Below are positions 13,300 through 58,454 of a stretch of DNA of 64,000 nt, one piece after another. The first letter of the stretch is position 1; each line of letters begins with the position of its first letter. Both the position numbers and the translations under genes were made by a program. The notes under the pieces are model-generated. The model did not search any database. It saw only the letters and a list, made by a program, of their open reading frames with translations, and had not been told where the DNA came from. Source of the DNA: Octopus sinensis. Lineage: Eukaryota. The stretch spans positions 13,032,464 through 13,096,463 of the forward strand of contig NC_043011.1 in assembly GCF_006345805.1 (NCBI RefSeq). The letters run 5' to 3'.

Positions 13300-14008
13300 T
13301 TTTAAAAAATGGGTGCATTAATAAAAATATATACGAAAGACATATAAAATAAAATATAACATCCTATTTTGGGTCATTTATAAATAATCAAGGTAATATA
13401 AATAATCAAGGTAATCCTATGCAATACAATAACATGAAAACAAAGTTTGTAGGTTTTTCCTAATATATATGTAGAAACATAAGACTTTGCTATACGGATT
13501 AAGATCCGCATAGCTTGGAAACAAAAACAAAATCCATCGTAGCGCTCATCGTTCAAGAGTCAAAATCAAAATCAAAAATACAAAATATATACTCTATCCA
13601 TATGGTATATTTATATTCGACATTTTAAATTTAGCCGCGTGCCTACATAAGTTCATTAGCTCACTTCTTTGATTCAAAGAATTATTGTCTTTGAATAAGA
13701 TGTACATTTTTTTCTAATAGACAAAGCTTGCACTTGAAATTATTTTTGTAAGCTCCATGCCTGTATGGTGCCGCCCTGTCCAGAATGCTCCATGTCACGT
13801 TGAAAGGTGGGGCTTCCTTTTATTTTAGTTCCCAGACATATTTTGCTAGGCTGGTTTTCTTCCTATTCTCTGGTTATTTAAATGAATTTTTATGAGAATA
13901 AAATCTTGTTTTAAATGAATTTTCCGAAGCCCCTGTGTATGTCTTGTATTCCGATGAGCCTTCCACTTGCAAGACATACACAGGGGCTTCGGAAAATTCA
14001 TTTAAAAC
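13300..14008 (-). mobile_element. 5'-truncated Penelope-like element (GIY-YIG endonuclease end) with a 39-bp 5' inversion
   Basis: The minus strand reads YKTYTGASENSFKTRFYSHKNSF..TSLAKYVWELK...CKLCLLEK...LNQRSELMNLCRH. Perfect 39-bp inverted repeat at 13908-13946 and 13970-14008. The 3' limit is approximate. Confidence 0.85.
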
Positions 14009-14099
14009 GTGCGACGAAAGATTTCCGAACAATGGACATGAGTTAAAATAATGAAATAAGAACAGTAATAAACGTGTGAAGAAAAATTATGTATTACGT

Positions 14100-14772: not shown

Positions 14773-16037
14773 CATATGAAAATTCTTGAGAAAGCACGTG
14801 ACTTAGTGGTTACGGTATTCCGGCTCACGATCATAATGTCGTGGGTTCGATTCATGGCGGAGCATTGTGACCTAGAACAAGACATTTTATTTCATGTTGC
14901 TCCAGTCAACTTAGCTGACACAAGTGAGCAGTACCTGTCATTCAAAGTTCCAGCCTTGTCACATTCTGTCTCACGTTGACTCTCCCTGAGAACCACGTTA
15001 AGAGTACGCGTGTCTGTGGAATGCTCAGCCACTTGCACGTTAATTTCATTCGAGTTAAAGACGAGAAGTTTTATAATAAAACATGTAAATGTCTCCCGAC
15101 TCCTTGTGACACGCATTTGGCACCGACCGAGAAAGACCATTTTTTTTTCACCCTTATGCAAAGTATTAAGTTCACTGAGAAAATTAACCCTTTCGAAAGG
15201 GATTTGAACACCGGTGTGAGAGACGTCAGTGATTCAAGGGTTCCTACCACCGTTTTTTACTCAACATAGACACTAAGTATTACCTTAAAACAAGCCGGAA
15301 TGTATTGAATGATGTCAACAATTCGTGGTTTAATGAGAACTGCAGACTCCTGATATTCCTTATTTCACACAGAAAGATCATAAATCAGATGTCGATAATA
15401 AAGTAATTATTAGGATGATCCGCCCAATTAAATTGTTCCTTTAGCCTTATAGAGTAATTCCTTTACAGTCATTGATTGTTTCAAAGGTATCCCTAATAAG
15501 AGATTTACAAAATTTATGGCTGACCGTTGGTAAGGAGAGACACACAAATAAGAAAGAAGAAAGCAAAGGACCACTGATGCGGTCACAGGAGTGTGACGAA
15601 AGAACTCTGGCCGAATGTAAAAAATAAATAATGCTTAAGCAAAGTAACACCAAATATATAGTGCGTGTGTTTTTATTGGCTAAACTGGCAAAATGACCAT
15701 TCCTAAATACAAAAATTTATTCAGTTTGATATAAATAATTATTGCACCTCCATCACATTAACACTGTTATTCAAGGTTTTAAATTTTGCTAAAACCGTTA
15801 ACAGATATTAATGATTTCGTGATTGATATAATTATACATGTCAAGAAAGCTGCTATAAGCTACGATAATTCTATTTGGATACAGAAAAATCTACAAATAC
15901 TTTCTTTTATGTAAGCATAACTGAAGTCGCTACTTTATTGGTTTATTTATTGTTTCCTCTCAGAGATGAATTCCGTAAGCTAGGTGGTGGCCTATTGATT
16001 ACGACCAGTTTCAGCCCCCGAGAACCTGACTGGTTTC

Positions 16038-16458: not shown

Positions 16459-17370
16459 TTCAAATGTCTTTGGCACGAATCTAATTATAGTAAATTTTTG
16501 GATGTGACCCTGAATCTTTGTAGCTCTGTAATGTATCATTTTGCCCACGTAAACACGGATGAGACCATTTCATAAATATTTTTTGATCTTTAAACCATCC
16601 AAACTTATAAAAAGTTGATAAAAATGCCTCATTTAAATTATTTTGGCTGTCAGCTAACGAACTGATTTTTAACGTTTACTCAACCTATTACAAGTCATTT
16701 ACTCAACGTGATTTTAAGGAGTTGTATACTATTAACTACAAAAATGAAATTAGAAAGAATAAATCTATAGATATTATTTTGTATAACCTTCAATTTAATA
16801 GGGAAATGGCAACACCTATAGCCAAATTCTTCTTTACTTAACATTTTCCGTTAGAACATAAATATTGCAATATCTTTAACAGGAATACTGTTAATTGTCT
16901 TATTTTACATCTCCTAACCTCGCGCAGAGCATTGTGTTATTGAATGTAGCTAAACTGACAAGCAGTAGTAATAATAGAACAAATTACATTAGCAGTAGCT
17001 ATAATACATTTTATAATTGTGTTAAGAAGAAGAACTTGCCCTTTAGATGGGAATTTCCTAATTAATGATGTAATATATAGGTATGCTGTTAACGTCCACA
17101 CAACTAGTAATTCTTAAGAAGGTCTAATAGCTAAATAGATTTAAAGGCCAATATCAAATACACTCCTTAATTTCGAAATCCAGCAAAAAGGAATATGATA
17201 TCACTTTTGGCATATATGTGGAGTCAGAAGAATAGGCACATCTAATGCGGGATCAAATGGAAGATTGTAGCTTTGCGATTTGTGTGCGGTGAAAGCAATT
17301 AAGATGCTTTCTAAAAAGGATTCGCTCTTGAATTCTGAACTCATTTCAGCATGTAAGCATAAGACTTACA
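16459..17370 (+). mobile_element. Highly decayed Penelope-like element (RT thumb, linker, GIY-YIG)
   Basis: Fragments VNFLDVTLNL, KYCNIFNRNTV, TCPLDGN.LINDVIY, YMWSQK and LLNSELISACKHK occur in PLE order, with many stops and frameshifts. Confidence 0.75.
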
Positions 17371-28029: not shown

Positions 28030-28430
28030 GATTTATCATATGGGATTTTACCAAAAGAGATTTTCTGGGAGTACCCAGCTTTAGAGAGGGCCTGATTATA
28101 GTGATGCGCATGATTACTGAAAATACTTTCGTTTGATGATATTTAATGATTTAACCGATTTCCTAGTTTACACTCATTTTCGAACGTTGAGATAGAAAGA
28201 TGTGGGTTATGCCCCAACTGTCTTGCTTCTGACTAATGTTTGAAGCATGTCCTATTTTTATAGGGGGTACATGGCTCAAATTGGTGTATGTTTTAGATAG
28301 GACTTGATTGGTAGAGGATAGTCACATGACTGGTCTTAGAAAATTTTGTAGGTTCCCCGTTGCATTCGTGTGTTAATGTCAAGGGGCAATGTTTGGCGTC
28401 TTAAGGCTGACACGGTTTTGTGAACATGCC
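28030..28430 (-). mobile_element. Short decayed PLE fragment
   Basis: The minus strand reads ISSNESIFSNHAHHYNQALSKAGYSQKI, like the PLE RT thumb motif (LSSN..IF.....Y..AL..SGY). Confidence 0.55.
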
Positions 28431-28884: not shown

Positions 28885-29067
28885 TAATTCAAAATTAAAA
28901 AGTCGAACACTCTTTACACTATTTACATTTGACGGATATTTGCCCTCATCTTGTTTGTTGTTAACAAAACGTTTCGGCTGATATACCATCCAGCTTTCAT
29001 CAGGTGTCTTGGGGGAAATTTCGAACCTGGGTTCTCATTCCTAAGGTATTTTTCGATGTTGTTGTTA

Positions 29068-29150
<83 letters not shown>

Positions 29151-29237
29151 TCACTGCCTGGAATCGAACTCGGAATCTTGGGGTTAATAGCCTGGGCTAC
29201 TAACCCCCAAAATTCCGTCTTCGATTCCAGGCAGTGA

Positions 29238-29329
<92 letters not shown>

Positions 29330-29556
29330 CAACAACAACAACAACAACAGCAACAACAACAACATCGAAAATACCTTAGGAATGAGAACCCAAGTTCGAA
29401 ATTTTCCCCCAAGATACCTGATGAAAGCTGGATGGTATATCAGTCGAAACGTTTTGTTAACAACAAACAAGATGAGGACAAATATCCGTCAAATGTAAAT
29501 AATGTACATAATTCCTCATCTCTTAAATATAGAACTGTATTAAAGACGTCGAGTTT
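28885..29556. mobile_element. Head-to-head inverted pair of a tRNA-headed, (AAT)n-containing, hammerhead-bearing element
   Basis: 28921-29186 is the reverse complement of about 29200-29500. There is a B-box-like GAGTTCGATTCC head, and CTGATGA..GAAACGTT cores at 28966-29008 (-) and 29414-29459 (+). Confidence 0.8.
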
Positions 29557-34461: not shown

Positions 34462-34560
34462 TTCCTTGTTTTTCCTGATGAGAAGGCGGCATAATGCACC
34501 CCTTATTCCTTCGAAATTAGGAATATGCAGCCTTCGAAACATATGTCGAGAATAAAGGAA
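34462..34560 (+). ncRNA. Type I hammerhead ribozyme, intact core
   Basis: TTTTC-CTGATGA(34475-81)-GAAGGC...GCCTTC-GAAAC-ATAT-GTC|GAGAA. Stem III is the palindrome ACATATGT and stem I is extended by TTCCTT/AAGGAA. Predicted cleavage follows 34547. Confidence 0.85.
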
Positions 34561-42456: not shown

Positions 42457-43103
42457 TTTATTATATAGAAGGAGCTTCTACAGGACTAGAACTGTTTCAT
42501 TCAAGAGAAATCTTCAGGAAGCTAGTTTAACAAGAATTGTATTGGCATTTATACATTTAGGCAGGTTTAAAGGGGTGGTGGTGGGGACTTTTTGGGGGTA
42601 GGCATAGCGCAAAAAATCATACTTGGGGAGTGGTCAAGGAGTCAGTGTAAATTAGATAGAAGAATAAATAAAAGAATAAAAAAGGGAGAATAAAAAAAAA
42701 TATATAGAAGAATGGAGTTTTAGGTAAATAAGGAAAATCTCACTTATACCTATACACATATGTATACATATATACACACACTCACACACATATACATACT
42801 CACATACATACACACACACCCATATATATATATATATATATAACACCACACACACACATACATACATACATATATCTACACATATATATATATTCTATAT
42901 ATACATCACATATACATGCATATACATATACACAACACACATGTATATATACACACACACACGACCACACATATACATATACACAAAAAAAATATATACA
43001 TACACACACATACACATACACACATACACACACATATATATCCACATACACATATGCACACACAACACACAAGTCCCTATATACTCATATATACTTATAC
43101 ACA

Positions 43104-43141
<38 letters not shown>

Positions 43142-43587
43142 CATATGTGTACCTATTCATACCTACACATACACACATATATACATACAAATACAAACCC
43201 ATTCCCTAATTTTAATTTTATTATCTTCATTTATTACTTTCGTTATCTTTGACCGCTGGTCACAAGCATCTTGGCTACGACAACTAGTCCCTTTTATCTT
43301 TCTACTTGAGCACAAGCACTCACTCACGCACGCACACTCGTTAGCACGCACACTCACCCATTCGTACACTCATACACATACACGCACGCACGCGTTATAT
43401 TCATACATACATACATCTACATACATACACGTATATACACATACGTACGCGTACCTACAGATTCATGTCTACAATCTTAGAAGACTAGTCTATACATATA
43501 CACCAATAAATAATATACACACATACATATACACCTACCTACATACAAATACATACTACATATATATACACACACATATACATACAC

Positions 43588-43657
<70 letters not shown>

Positions 43658-43824
43658 TATATATACATACATATACAAATTATATACATACACATCCGCA
43701 TACATACATACATACACCCATACATACATACATATATACAAACAACACACACCCACACGTATACATATACATACATATACGCGCATGCATACACATACAA
43801 ATACATACACATACACATATACAT

Positions 43825-43856
<32 letters not shown>

Positions 43857-44263
43857 CTATACTATCTATATACATATATACATACATACATATACACATA
43901 TACATACACACACCACATACATACACATATACACATACACGCACATACACATATACATGCGTACCCATACACACACACACACACACACACACGCATCCAT
44001 ATATACACATAAGTACACACATGCGTAAAAGTATACATATATCTATGCTTACACATACACACACACACACGCACTCCTTATGTTCATACTTACATGCATA
44101 CTCAAAAATAAGTAATAAAATTATATACGTGCAGTTATTCATACATGCATACTCAAAAAATAAATAATAATAATAAATAATAAATATTAAGTATATATAC
44201 GTGCATTTACCTATTATACAGACGGATACATACATATAAACTTACACACACACAACTATATAT

Positions 44264-44318
<55 letters not shown>

Positions 44319-44628
44319 CACACACACACACACATATATATATATCTATATATATATATAATAATATATGTACACATACTTACACATATGTAAATATCAT
44401 ACACACATACATAACTCTACGTACCTACATATACCTAAACACACGAGCGTACACGTATATGTACTATACACTACACATACACATACCCACGCATATATAC
44501 ATACATACACATACATACACGCACATATACACATATATATATATACATATATATACACATATATATATATATACATATACACACATACACACATATATAC
44601 GTACATATACATACACACACATACACAT

Positions 44629-44673
<45 letters not shown>

Positions 44674-45027
44674 TATATATACATATACACATACATACAT
44701 ACACATACATATACATATACACACATACACACACACATATATATACACACACACACACATACATATACATACACACATACACACATATATACACATACAT
44801 ACACATATACACATATATATATTTATATATATATATATACATATACATGTGTGCAAACATACATACATACTCATACACACTCACACACTTACATATACAT
44901 ATATACACACACTTACACACACACATATATATATATATACATACATACATATAATATATATATAATATATACATATATAACACACATGTCTATACCACAT
45001 ACACATATGTACACATACACACATATT

Positions 45028-45064
<37 letters not shown>

Positions 45065-45552
45065 ATATCATACACACACATACATTATATACATATATAC
45101 ATATACATATAATATATATATATATATATACATACATACACACACACATATATATATACCACCACACCTACACATACACACATATATATACATATATACA
45201 TACATATACACACATACACACACCACATATATATGTACATACTACACATACACATACAACATACATATACATATACATATACACATGCACATACGTATAA
45301 CTCTACATACCCACATATACATATATATATATACACACACACACATATATATATATACACACACATATATATACACATATATATATGCACAATACACACA
45401 CATATATATATACCCATCTACAATCTATATATACACACACATATACATGCACATACACAATAACTCTACATACCTACATATACATCGACATACTCGCGTA
45501 CACTCATATATATATATATATACACATACGAGTATTATATATACACTATGAG

Positions 45553-45612
<60 letters not shown>

Positions 45613-45818
45613 TATGTATATGTATATGTGGGTATGTAGAGTTATACGCATGTGCATGTGTATATGCATATGTATATGTATGTGTATGTGTATGTGTATG
45701 TATGTACATATATATGTGTGTGTGTGTGTATGTGTGTATATGTATGTATATATGTATATATATGTGTGTATGTGTAGGTGTGGGTATATATATGTGTGTG
45801 TGTGTATGTATGTATGTA

Positions 45819-45849
<31 letters not shown>

Positions 45850-45866
45850 ATATATGTATGTGTGTG

Positions 45867-45906
<40 letters not shown>

Positions 45907-45984
45907 ATATGTGTTGTATAGACATGTGTGTATATATATGTATATATAATATATATTATATGTTGTATGTATTATGTATATAAT

Positions 45985-46017
<33 letters not shown>

Positions 46018-46275
46018 AAGTGTGTGTATATATGTATATGTAAGTGTGTGAGTGTGTATGAGTATGTATGTATGTTTGCACACATGTATATGTATATATA
46101 ATATATATATATGTGTGTGTATATGTGTATGTATGTGTATATATGTGTGTATGTATGTGTGTATGTATATGTATGTGTGTGTGTGTATATATGTATGTGT
46201 GTGTGTATGTGTGTATATGTATATGTATGTGTATGTATGTATGTGTATATGTATATATATGTATATGTGTGTATA

Positions 46276-46316
<41 letters not shown>

Positions 46317-46485
46317 ATATGTGCGTGTATGTATGTGTATGTATGTATATATGCGTGGGTATGTGTATGTGTATATGTACAATATACGTGTACGCTCCTG
46401 TTTTTAGGTATATGTAGGTACGTAGAGTTATGTATGTGTGTATGTATATGTACATATGTGTAAGTATGTGTACATATAATATATA

Positions 46486-46523
<38 letters not shown>

Positions 46524-46915
46524 AATGTGTATGTATGTGTGTGTGTGTGTGTGTTTGTGTAAGTTTATATGTATGTATCCGTCTGTATAATAGGTAACTG
46601 CACGTATATATACTTAATATTTATTATTTATTATTTATTATTTATTTTTTGAGTATGCATGTATGAATAACTGCACGTATATATATTTTATTACTTATTT
46701 TTTGAGTATGCATGTAAGTATGAACATAAGGAGTGGCGTGTGGGTGTGTGTACGTGTAAACATAGATATATGTATACTTTTACGCATGTGTGTACTTATG
46801 TGTATATATGGATGCGCGTGTGTGTGTGTGTGTATGGGTACGCATGTATATGTGTATGTGCGTGTATGTGTGTGTATATGTGTATATGTATGTATGTATA
46901 TGTATGTATGTGTAT

Positions 46916-46961
<46 letters not shown>

Positions 46962-47126
46962 ATGTATATGTGTATGTGTATGTATTTGTATGTGTATGCA
47001 TGCGCGTATATGTATGTATATGTATACGTGTGGGTGTGTGTATGTGTGTATATATGTATGTATGGGTGTATGTATGTATGTATGTATGCGGATGTGTATG
47101 TATATATATTTGTATATGTATGTATA

Positions 47127-47175
<49 letters not shown>

Positions 47176-47617
47176 ATGTGTATGTATATGTGTGTGTATA
47201 TATATGTATGTATGTATTTGTATGTAGGTGTATATGTATGTGTGTATATATATTTATTGGTGTATATGTATAGACTAGTCTTCTAAGATTGTAGACATGA
47301 ATCTGTAGGTACGCGTACGTATGTGTATATACGTGTATGTATGTAGATGTATGTATGTATGAATATAACGCGTGCGTGCGTGTATGTGTATGAGTGTACG
47401 AATGAGTGAGTGTGCGTGCTAACGAGTGTGCGTGCGTGAGTGAGTGCTTGTGCTCAAGTAGAAAGATAAAAGGGACTAGTTGTCGTAGCCAAGATGCTTG
47501 TGACCAGCGGTCAAAGATAACAAAAGTAATAAATGAAGATAATAAAATTAAAATTAGGAATGGGTTGTATTTGTATGTATAATGTGTGTATGTGTAGGTA
47601 TGAATAGGTACAATATG

Positions 47618-47665
<48 letters not shown>

Positions 47666-47910
47666 ATAATCTATGTGTATAAGTATATATGAGTATATAG
47701 GGACTTGTGTGTGTGGTGCATGTGTGTATGTGGATATATATGTGTGTGCATGTGTGTATGTGTATGTGTGTGTATGTATAAATTTTTTGTGTATATGTGT
47801 ATGTGTGGTCGTGTGTGTGTGTATATATACAATGTGTGTATGTGTATATATACATGTGTGTGTGTGTATGTATATGCATGTATATGTGTATGTGTATGTA
47901 TATATATATA

Positions 47911-47960
<50 letters not shown>

Positions 47961-47975
47961 AGATATATGTATGTA

Positions 47976-48012
<37 letters not shown>

Positions 48013-48371
48013 GGGTGTGTGTGTATGTATGTGAGTATGTATATGTGTGTGAGTGTGTGTATATATGTATACCTATATGTGTATAGGTATAAGTGAGATT
48101 TTCCTTATTTACCTAAAACTCTATTCTTCTATATATTTTTATTCTCCCTTTTTTTATTCTTTTATTTTTCTTCTATCTAATTTACCACTGACTCCTTGAC
48201 CACTCCCCAAGTATGATTTTTTTGCGCTATGCCTACCCCCCAAAAAGTCCCCCACCACCACCCCTTTAAACCTGCCTAAATGTATAAATGCCAATACAAT
48301 TTGTTAACTAGCTTCTGAAGATTTCTCTTGAATGAAACATTCTAGTCCTGTAGAAGCTCCTTCTTAATAAA
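42457..48371. repeat. ~5.9-kb imperfect palindrome of (CA/TA)-microsatellite-rich sequence
   Basis: Unique anchors are mirrored: 42460-42760/48075-48370, 43190-43510/47250-47570, 44000-44240/46560-46810 and 44400-44520/46320-46450. Confidence 0.9.
42473..42523 (-). ncRNA. Type I hammerhead ribozyme motif
   Basis: Minus strand: AGCTTC-CTGAAGA-TTTC(TCTT)GAAT-GAAAC-AG(TTCTAGTC)CT-GTA|GAAGCT. A damaged mirror copy lies at 48310-48358 (+). Confidence 0.75.
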
Positions 48372-48909
48372 AAAAAAATAATATATATATATATTATATA
48401 TATAATACACACACGCACACACACACACCATATATATATATAAATTCAGAGCGCAAACATGACTTTTTTCTTGCACTCTGAATTTTTCCATGGTCTAGGC
48501 TTTTAAAAGGCCCTCAATGTTGGTTTCTTTGTCCTGTTTTTATTTCTTTATGTGTACTGTATTTTTTGCATTTGTATTTTTATTTTGTATTTGTATTTTA
48601 ATTTGTATTTTTATTTGTATTGCTTTTACGTCCTGTTCTTGTCACATTTTTTTCTTTCCTTGCTTTTACCCCACTGCAAAGGAATTTTATTTAATTCTCT
48701 TGCAGGAAGGACTGGTTCGACGGGTCGTGTTCTGTCCTTACCTTCGAAACACGCATGGAGTCGAACCAGGGACAGCCGATGAAGGGGAATATTCCTTGTA
48801 TTGTTTGTCTTGTACTCTGTTTTTCCGTTGTTAAAAAAAGTCCGTTTCCATGTTTGTTTTTATGTTTTCATTTCTCGTTGAGTTCTACGTCTATTTGTGG
48901 TGTCCTGTA

Positions 48910-55150: not shown

Positions 55151-56109
55151 CTAGCAGCATAGCCCGGCGTTGCCCGGGTATGTAAGAACCCCTAGTAGGC
55201 AACGACTAATCCCAATCTAGTCCTTTCCCTCTAGGGAACGAAGGCGCATGTGTAGGTTGCAATGTCTTCTCTTCACTCGAATACTTCTGTGTATACGATG
55301 TTCCTAGCTGTCCCTTTGGGCGAAAACATAAAAACATCATTGCGCCTCCCAACGCGTGAACAGCCCACGTAGAGTTGACCGTGGGCGAAGCACTGTTCGC
55401 CCAACTGTAACCCAGCGACTTGTAACGTTTGGCCTTGGGATTTATTGATGGACATTGCGAAGCAGAGTTTAACAGGAAACTGAGAACGCCTGAAGTGGAT
55501 TGGTAGATCAGCGCCCGACGGTTGAAGGTGCATGCGTGGAATGAAGACGTCCTCTTCCTTCCCACAACGGGTAAGTATTGTGGCTGTTATTAAATGTGGT
55601 GGCAAATGTTTCACAACCAGACGTGTGCCGTTGCACTGTTTAGGTGGAACCAAATTCCTGATAAGCATAATGGGCGCACCGACTTTTAACTTCAGGATGT
55701 GTGGCAGCAGGCCTGGCGGTTCAAGTGAATTCAGGAATTCAACAGGATAATCGGCAAGCTCGGCAGGGCCTGCTGTCCTATCAATAGATTTGTAGACGTG
55801 GACATCAGAGGAATAGCTTCAAGTAGCTGGATATTGATGGAGTTGAGAGTTAAAAAGGTCGAGTTGCGTCCCCTAGACAGTCTGTGGTTTGTGTTTCTGA
55901 TTCTCGACTCCATGTCGAATTTATCGATTTTTTTCAGAACTGGGGGAACTTTTCAAAATTTTCGCTGCGTTAGTTTTGAATTATGACATTTGGCTATGTG
56001 TGTGTCAAGTTTCATCAGAATTGGTTGAAAGCCGTGGTCAGGGTGAGGGTACAACCTGACAGACACACAGACACAGATACAGACAAACTGCCGTTTATAT
56101 AGAGAGAGA
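55151..56109 (-). mobile_element. Helitron derivative carrying a Pif1 helicase C-terminal remnant
   Basis: [16 protein letters not shown]...VFIPR....[23 protein letters not shown]...[14 protein letters not shown] (55273-55668). Termini are A|TC (56109) and hairpin plus CTAG|T (55151). Confidence 0.92.
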
Positions 56110-56926: not shown

Positions 56927-57636
56927 TACATACAAATATAATGGACAGTGATGAGATGAATAAATTAATACAGCTATGATGATAGGCTAGCTTATAATAA
57001 ATATATAGAAAGATGGCAAAATGTTTATAAAAAGCAACTTTTTATATTTTCCATTAAAAACTGAATTATATTTGCCTAATCACTGCAATTGATTTGGGAA
57101 TTAAGTAATCAGTAACACTAAGTGCGATTTTTATTATGATGTCAACGTTTCGTCACGTCAAGTGGGAAAGATGGATCTGCTTTATAATTAGTTTTTCCAT
57201 GTTGCAGAATAAAACAGAAAAGCTGATTAACCGCAAGATAAATCTGTTATGTGGCGATTCTTTGTTAGAGTGAAATAGGATGTCAGTTTAGGAAATATCT
57301 TCATTAATGATGGCAAAGTATCTCAACGAACGACTAGAGACTTTAGAAAAATCTCAGCTACGTTCTATGGTCCAATTTTATCAATCACCAAAAACAGCTG
57401 CAATGTTTCAGGCTATTTAATTATTGGAAGTAGGGTCGCTTTTATTCGATGTTGCAGGCAATTAATGGATCCGTTCTTGAACAGACACTTCAGAAATATC
57501 TGACCACATCATGACTTATTCTTACGACATGTTCGTGAATAGCATCTATGGCATTCTATGCTCTTACAGAAGGTCCTACATAGGACGGACAAGACTATCC
57601 CAAGTTATCAGAATAAAAGAATACTGCAAATATCTA

Positions 57637-58116
57637 TAGTGGTTGTATACTGTCAACTCAACGTGACAGTCCCGTAAGGGAATTACACCACCACCATTTA
57701 GCCCTAGGAAACATCGACGTCTTCTGTCGGCTTTGACACATTTTATGTGTCCTTATATTTGCAAAGGGGAGGCAATCACCCCCGCAAGCCGGGACAAGGC
57801 ACCTGAAGACATATGTTTCTGAGTGTATTGCTCGTCTTCAGTCCAGGGTAGCTTGTCTCACTCGCTGATATGACTGCAACATCTCTGCAAAAATATCCTA
57901 TTTTCAGTAAAATTTATTTACTGATCACCAAAATTAGAAATATTGAATTTATAAATGTCTCAGAGAGACATGAGCGGTGGTGGAGGGATAGAGTGGTTGT
58001 ATACTGTCAACATAACGTGACAGTCCCGTTGAGTTGACAATATACAACCATTACATCGCTCCACCACCACTCATGTCTCTCTGAGACATTTATAAATTCA
58101 ATATTACTAATTTTGT
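57637..58116 (-). mobile_element. Retrozyme-like non-coding element: 354-nt terminally redundant unit, 5' inversion and 9-bp TSD
   Basis: TSD AAATATCTA (57628-57636 and 58117-58125). Direct repeat at 57639-57675 and 57993-58029. Inverted repeat at about 57929-58011 and 58033-58115. Hammerhead at 57802-57847. Confidence 0.85.
57802..57847 (-). ncRNA. Type I hammerhead ribozyme
   Basis: Minus strand: CCTGGA-CTGAAGA-CGAG(CAATACA)CTCA-GAAAC-ATAT-GTC|TTCAGG. Stem I is extended by GACAAG/CTTGTC. Confidence 0.85.
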
Positions 58117-58454
58117 AAATATCTAGTTAGGTCAGAACCAACCAAGTCATGAATTGTTTGGTATTAAACTCAACATCAATCGTCACAAAATAATAGAAAG
58201 TCGGAGAGAAAGAACCACATTGGAAACACAATGATCAACGGCACATCACGTGGAGTACTGAGAAATAAATCAACAAACCCGGTAAAAACTATAGCTATCA
58301 CGGAAATGAGTGATTGTACCTAAAAATGATTCTGATTTGTAACGCTGTTTACAGACATACACACAAACATAATTACACTCACATACACACACATATATAC
58401 TTACAGACACACACACATACACGCGCACACACAGGCACACACATTCATAGACAG

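Follow-up and report, generated by a model that had tools for sequence, protein, structure and literature searches.

A 480-bp insert in the Octopus sinensis genome is a two-armed copy, one of hundreds, of a non-coding 354-nt unit with a hammerhead ribozyme motif, a new family of an already known kind of element. We found it in a 64,000-nucleotide stretch of contig NC_043011.1 (positions 13,032,464 to 13,096,463; hereafter the window). Copies of this family mostly have fixed 3' ends at either of two sites (A and B) and truncated 5' ends; many have a second arm that pairs an end at A with an end at B, and these usually carry 9-15-bp target duplications in AT-rich DNA. The unit is probably a non-autonomous Penelope-like element (PLE) on which a PLE enzyme acts in trans, with a linear RNA slightly under two units in length as the template.

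Anatomy of the insert

We numbered the unit along the minus strand, which carries the ribozyme motif, such that u1 is position 58029 and u395 is position 57635; with a period of 354, u395 corresponds to u41 of the following lap. The insert is an A+B two-arm insertion, in which a long arm ending at A is fused head-to-head to a short inverted arm ending at B, across about 3 nt of common sequence (Table 1). The sequence-only reading had placed a 9-bp target-site duplication around a 480-bp insert, which we found to be exact and in the expected positions, and an inverted duplication of ~83 nt, which we also recovered (57929-58021 and 58023-58115, 93 nt at 89% complementarity, with an arm proper of about 84-90 nt). 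It had further proposed a terminal redundancy of 37 nt. The 354-nt period and a 17-mer at 57641 and 57995 stood, but the direct repeat is 41 nt long (93% identical). This redundancy is what remains of an upstream lap at the point where the window's copy was truncated. The copy is 6.7% off the commonest letters of the family alignment columns (family median 4.8%), and from its sequence the two-armed insert looks dead on arrival.

Table 1. Coordinates of the insert in the window, and of related retroposon insertions elsewhere in the genome
Feature	Position	Strand	Remarks
Target-site duplication beside end A	57628..57636	.	exact 9-mer repeat; final 2 nt overlap the element end
Target-site duplication beside end B	58117..58125	.	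exact 9-mer repeat
Long arm, 395 nt = 1.12 units (u1 to u395), 5'-truncated partial tandem with 3' end at fixed site A	57635..58029	-	
One complete 354-nt period of the family unit	57676..58029	-	from repeat spacing and from other copies that continue head-to-tail
Downstream lap of the 41-nt redundancy, ending at A (inferred RT start 1)	57635..57675	-	44/95 copies end here
Upstream lap of the 41-nt redundancy	57989..58029	-	rare two-base family variant, not in this copy's other two laps
56-nt "tail" between sites A and B, here an internal lap	57933..57988	-	3' edge (B) is the end of 37/95 copies
Type I hammerhead motif	57802..57847	-	predicted cut 57808|57807 (after u222)
Empty site (u163-u190), occupied by an ORF1-only L1/Tx1-like retroposon in other copies	57840..57867	-	occupied in L077, L110, L241, L063, L176
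Short inverted arm, 5'-truncated, running through A and the tail to B (about 58111-58115)	58027..58116	+	
ORF1-only insertions 5' of hammerhead cores	L077:3300-4910, L110:3075-4730, L206:1720-, L241, L212, L236, L237, L239, L243, L245, L246, L252, L253, L260, L261		

Copies across the genome end at two fixed sites

We searched the 2.7-Gb genome with the element as a DNA query, resulting in 2,601 first-look candidates (40 scored), and with a 23-nt ribozyme motif, resulting in 95 exact matches across most chromosomes and 0 for the reversed control. All 95 motif places were inspected; some insertions, with the motif in both arms or in both laps, are counted twice among them. The 3' ends lay at A (u390-398) in 44 places, at B (u445-456) in 37 and elsewhere in 14, such that 81 of the 95 ended at one of two sites 56 nt apart, whereas the 5' ends were scattered from u-192 to u208. 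Two further samples of 30 loci, which overlap the 95-place sample in part, gave ends at A or B in 26/30 (anchored at u240-330) and 29/30 (anchored at u330-394). Because the 3' ends cluster at A and B in every sample, the copies are not permuted round a circle. Circular permutation of the copy ends, as proposed in the sequence-only reading, is thus not supported: fixed ends, the outcome which that reading had named as refuting it, were found for the 3' ends. Its description of the redundancy as a fixed "one turn plus 37 nt" does not survive the range of 5' ends. Its broader view of a non-coding, retrozyme-like 354-nt unit held up (the unit contains no ORF), as did that of a PLE-type retro-insertion, which is borne out by the fixed 3' ends, 5' truncation, inverted arms and target duplications.

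Among 139 insertions, the longest arm was 594 nt and no arm reached two units, with two hammerhead motifs in a few single arms (L009, L047, L171). Target DNA was AT-rich, and 33 of 91 insertions lay in simple repeats. Three copies (L167, L169, L171) begin at u216, with an (AT)n tract abutting the AT-AT loop of helix III; microhomology joining is the likely origin of these 5' junctions. Some copies also contain an open frame of 60-85 codons that starts in the hammerhead, which we considered as a coding remnant and rejected, as its ATG is not conserved.

Two-armed insertions pair site A with site B

A head-to-head second arm was present in 39 insertions among the 95 motif places. Both ends lay at A or B in 28 of these (the remaining 11 had an end elsewhere), comprising 25 A+B, 2 B+B and 1 A+A insertions; an A+B excess of this size has a P value of about 1e-5 against independent choice of ends. 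Outside simple repeats, exact duplications of at least 8 nt flanked 11 of 13 A+B insertions (9-15 nt), compared to 5/36 one-arm and 2/9 other two-arm insertions, and to 1.6% of trials at shifted positions. The two arms of one insertion agreed at 117 of 123 non-CpG diagnostic sites (67.6 expected for random pairs), a comparison in which the sites of one insertion are linked and later conversion between inverted arms may have raised the agreement.

We considered whether such structures could arise at the DNA level, from satellite pieces or fold-back rearrangements without an RNA step. DNA repair can create inverted arms and nearby microsatellites; however, one-sided truncation, two fixed 3' ends, the A+B rule, target duplications and a spread over most chromosomes all speak against such an origin, which we regard as extremely unlikely.

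Search for a coding partner

To identify a possible autonomous partner, we examined two high-copy PLE families, one of the GIY-YIG type (12,600 first-look candidates) and a second one (4,046 candidates); no pLTR in common with the unit was seen at the 30 loci taken from each. When 268 loci were scanned with five PLE peptides, none had a PLE ORF joined to the unit, and no RT plus GIY-YIG ORF was found within the unit or joined to its copies. Because no autonomous partner turned up in these searches, it is the insertion signatures that point to a PLE enzyme, and a rare ORF-linked copy may exist elsewhere in the genome.

The window itself contains fragments of PLE RT/GIY-YIG ORFs at 13597-14041, 1-448, 15671-15887, 16593-17108 and 28035-28166, and Pfam named no family for any PLE ORF piece. 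The fragment at 13597-14041 belongs to the family of 12,600 candidates, with open frames of up to 766 codons elsewhere. A 181-codon frame at 55276-55818 on the minus strand resembles the end of a Helitron PIF1-type helicase.

The partner search bears on the possibility that the copies are 3' stubs, or solo pLTR ends, of a coding PLE rather than a self-standing unit. Most copies are indeed short 3' pieces, the search covered two PLE families, and PMC4209133 names stubs of this type as the usual origin of hammerhead motifs. Long copies, however, with arms of up to 594 nt, pass from the tail directly into the next hammerhead with no ORF between, and the sister family described below shares this ORF-less period. 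No coding sequence other than an L1/Tx1-like piece was common to the regions upstream of the 95 copies. The stub reading is largely refuted for the long copies, and we consider it very unlikely for the family.

The hammerhead motif

In the window's copy, the minus-strand motif consists of stem I (57847-57842 and 57807-57802, extendable to about 57857-57792), the core (57841-57835), stem II (57834-57820), GAAA (57819-57816) and a palindromic helix III of 2-3 bp. This motif had been called an intact hammerhead. A type I motif with all core nucleotides is present, but the term "intact" goes too far: position 10.1-11.1 is C.A rather than G-C, helix III is short, and Rfam was silent, with 0 matches in the whole window at the gathering threshold and the motif at 57847-57802 left unscored at E ≤ 10. 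The description should read as a complete core with possible activity. The minimum-energy fold of the 71-nt monomer stretch did not contain the hammerhead form.

A sister family (2,216 first-look candidates), at about 72-78% identity, shares the ORF-less period, the end sites and the inverted arms. Its stem I is altered yet still pairs, and its helix III is another palindrome; by these sequence comparisons, the hammerhead covaries across sister families. Across all loci collected, helix III was palindromic in 104 of 120 hammerhead-shaped sites, with eight different sequences, though this count is dominated by the 354-nt family, comes from loci partly chosen on the motif, and passed a filter that itself required pairing. 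At 10.1-11.1, the 120 sites included C.A in 70, U-A in 33, U.U in 9 and G-C in 3. A short palindromic helix III is the mark of dimer-acting hammerheads (PMC4209133). The hammerhead is probably under selection and shaped for dimer action, with a dimer possible only in rare near-full-length copies.

Several other hammerhead-bearing sequences were observed. Several sister families of units of about 350 nt are represented in L204-L233, L122, L240, L263 and L278, and core variants of sister units include U3-A8 (L122, L262, L263) and U4C (L246, L253, L260, L261). In the window, a weak Rfam Hammerhead_1 match with a broken core lies 33 nt beyond the insert, in its flank (57561-57595, plus strand, 17.3 bits, E 0.42), and is probably a chance match or an old remnant. 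A 6-kb palindrome at 42457-48374 (83% arm identity), with degenerate tandem repeats inside, has a minimal-hammerhead-like motif near either end (42517 minus and 48315 plus). An inverted repeat at 28915-29506 has one such motif per arm (29003 minus, 29418 plus), and is probably another two-arm PLE stub. More of these motifs are found in other repeats, at 34475 (+), 36252 (-), 35964 (-), 61985 (-) and 12315 (-).

A linear or a circular template

We propose that a PLE RT/GIY-YIG protein would cut both strands of AT-rich DNA in a staggered manner, and that each target 3' end would then prime reverse transcription inside the element RNA, with A used by one end and B by the other. The two cDNAs would stop early and be joined head-to-head by microhomology. 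In the window's copy, the B-primed cDNA would be about 85 nt and the A-primed cDNA 395 nt, hence the 41-nt redundancy. The identity of the enzyme, the order of priming and the linear form of the template are what we infer from the structure of the copies.

The same enzyme could instead copy a circle. In a retrozyme cycle with fixed priming, dimeric hammerhead cleavage would yield a 354-nt monomer that is ligated into a circle, on which the PLE enzyme starts at A or B and passes one turn. The genomic ends weaken such a model no further than that, because fixed 3' ends are also expected from a circle that is primed at set positions inside the unit; a re-ligated circle would also span the predicted cut site. 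The exact 354-nt period is retained in all partial tandems, the hammerhead covaries across sister families with differing palindromic helix III sequences, and the predicted fold of the unit is much more stable than that of shuffled sequences (z -5.0), a result that is unspecific as to circles. Circles have been demonstrated for other animal retrozymes and proposed as their templates (PMC7229834), and have been proposed as templates for PLEs (PMC4209133).

To distinguish these models, we compared diagnostic variants between the laps of partial tandems. The laps agreed at 50 of 63 sites (35.9 expected at random) and were concordant in 20 of 28 insertions; this majority fits a circle equally well and counts against the linear reading. 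Yet they were discordant at the other 13 sites, in 8 of 28 insertions, an excess over the discordance of inverted arms (Fisher P 0.0015, linked sites). In two of these insertions, L047 and L171, entire variant blocks are switched between laps. The window's own copy is discordant as well: its upstream lap has a rare two-base variant, shared with three other insertions and found in 4 of 220 laps (L001, L002, L063, L085), and such a split between laps is not what 1.1 turns around a single circle would yield. Template switching between circles could also account for differing laps. With 45 haplotypes among 71 copies, the family is highly mosaic, a pattern that fits frequent template switching or mixed tandems.

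Arm lengths and motif spacing bear on the same question. No arm held two units. No arm started beyond u-200, where a constant truncation rate predicted 3-5 (P 0.007-0.05); the absence of two full laps alone was not significant (P 0.1-0.25). Only 1 pair of motifs lay 354 apart among the 95 exact matches, and no long unit arrays were found among them (arrays of variant motifs would escape this search), so substrates for double cleavage are rare. The atypical 10.1-11.1 pair also counts against the circle. We rejected a cleaved linear monomer as the main template: cleaved RNA would pile up starts at u223, and we observed 0 of 41 arm starts at u222-224 and 4 of 41 at u221-229 (P 0.37). Assembled contigs of four runs cover the family, and joints leading 354 nt back are also present in one run that is probably DNA, so these data have no bearing on expression or circles. 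On balance, a circular template is possible and less likely than a linear one, and we judge the circle model unlikely. The hammerhead may also give a 354-nt monomer or circle, and under the linear model the insertions would be explained without either.

An ORF1-only retroposon inserts beside the ribozyme

Several copies are interrupted at u163-u190, in sense, by a 1.6-kb element that contains one ORF of 460 codons and is flanked by 14-21-bp duplications. The ORF has a weak zf-CCHC match and CCHC/ZCCHC3-like look-alikes at a low recognition score. We provisionally take the element to be L1/Tx1-like from the shape of its ORF1.

The ORF1 has 13,531 first-look candidates in the genome. We took the 30 closest genomic relatives of the element, 26 of which had a mappable 3' end. 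A hammerhead core was located ≤45 nt from the 3' end in 11 of these 26 (10/25 without the query locus), against rates of 1.0% in random pieces of the window and 0.3% in shuffles. Flanks matched hammerhead-unit contexts in 18 of 26 versus 9 of 150 controls, where the contexts were drawn partly from the same loci, and the hammerhead units targeted belong to several diverged families. For these 30 closest relatives, the flanks in one target type exceed the 20% that PMC4494074 gives as a criterion. Five head-to-tail arrays of more distant ORF1 relatives (L264-L268; 3-4 units of 1.7 kb seen, e.g. G000:C5:62289500-62299400) contained no hammerhead unit, and the target preference can therefore not be extended to the whole ORF1 family.

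Some composites of retroposon and unit seem to have moved as PLE-type insertions. One locus (L110) has two head-to-head arms that both start within the 3' end of the retroposon and end at A and B, and another (L063) is truncated inside the ORF1-only element and has different flanks. Separately, at L190:1457 an ORF1-only element is fused straight to u286 and ends at B, with the hammerhead part absent.

Tx1-clade elements are known to target other transposons (PMC4494074). Compared to Tx1L/Tx1D and Tx1-Mar as described there, the octopus element has in common a zinc-knuckle ORF1, 14-21-bp duplications and the reuse of one site in another repeat; unlike them, it is ORF1-only and its target is the 5' edge of the hammerhead in several diverged families. 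We found no report of a ribozyme motif as a retroposon target in the literature searched.

Comparison with known elements

PLE insertions are described as partial tandems truncated at the 5' end, next to an inverted copy and with a 30-40-bp tail that is often confined to one end (PMC8557442); in one case, the duplication is 9 bp and the tail is borne by one of the inverted pLTRs (PMC3846280). The pLTRs suffice in trans (PMC3846280). In vitro, a PLE protein was found to cleave both strands of AT-rich target DNA and to extend each of them; two internal RT starts bound the tail, unprocessed RNA is the main substrate, the protein is predicted to be a dimer, and hammerhead cleavage is not needed (PMC11167929). 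The 354-nt family resembles these endonuclease-bearing PLEs (PMC3846280, PMC8557442, PMC11167929) in its partial tandems, 5' truncation, inverted truncated copy, one-arm tail, duplications of the 8-10-bp class, AT-rich targets and a hammerhead that precedes two internal RT start sites. It differs in that it has no ORF, its whole unit is 354 nt, and its tail is 56 nt rather than the published 30-40 nt, the last of which counts against a PLE reading.

Animal non-LTR retrozymes (PMC7229834; preprint 10.64898/2026.07.22.740005) are similar in their head-to-tail units of the 170-400-nt class with GC <50%, type I hammerhead with a short palindromic helix III, lack of LTR, PBS and PPT, longer target duplications and proposed dependence on PLEs. 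The preprint argues that animal retrozymes are non-autonomous PLE derivatives, and reports cleavage in 1 of 9 dimers tested. In contrast to these retrozymes, the copies here are dispersed and shorter than two units, no arrays were found, and 10.1-11.1 is non-canonical; circular RNA and cleavage would be predictions for the octopus element. The window locus does not contain the "two consecutive complete units" of the preprint's rule.

Chlamys/MRC1-type PLE derivatives (PMC8557442) are likewise non-coding, pLTR-forming, head-to-tail and mobilised in trans; unlike our element, they are described without canonical hammerheads and have 3' sequence in common with a known partner. Plant LTR retrozymes have a type III hammerhead in their LTRs, a PBS and PPT, and a 4-bp duplication (10.64898/2026.07.22.740005). 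This class was rejected for the octopus element given its type I motif, 9-bp duplication and absence of a tRNA-like part.

Implications

The A+B pairing and the target duplications provide in-genome support for a two-start, both-strand mechanism whose demonstration has so far come from in vitro work on one PLE. The 354-nt element is also a compact test bed for the open question of which templates, circles or linear multimers, give rise to animal retrozymes and PLE partial tandems: its many copies have diagnostic variants, so the circle and linear models differ in their genomic predictions. The genomic variant data lean towards linear templates.

More broadly, the hammerhead units and the retroposon may form a stack of parasites, with ~350-nt hammerhead mini-PLEs relying on a Penelope enzyme that primes on both strands of the target, and an ORF1-only retroposon that targets the 5' edge of their ribozyme. 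We give this combined picture an even chance of being correct. If true, one RNA would be primed at both A and B, one per target strand, and the retroposon would have evolved to target a ribozyme in sense across families that are 25-35% diverged. The host ribozyme would then lie about 50-70 nt behind the retroposon's 3' end, in a composite that could be moved by the Penelope enzyme. A ribozyme-targeting retroposon, if true, would add a target of a new kind to those used by site-specific LINEs.
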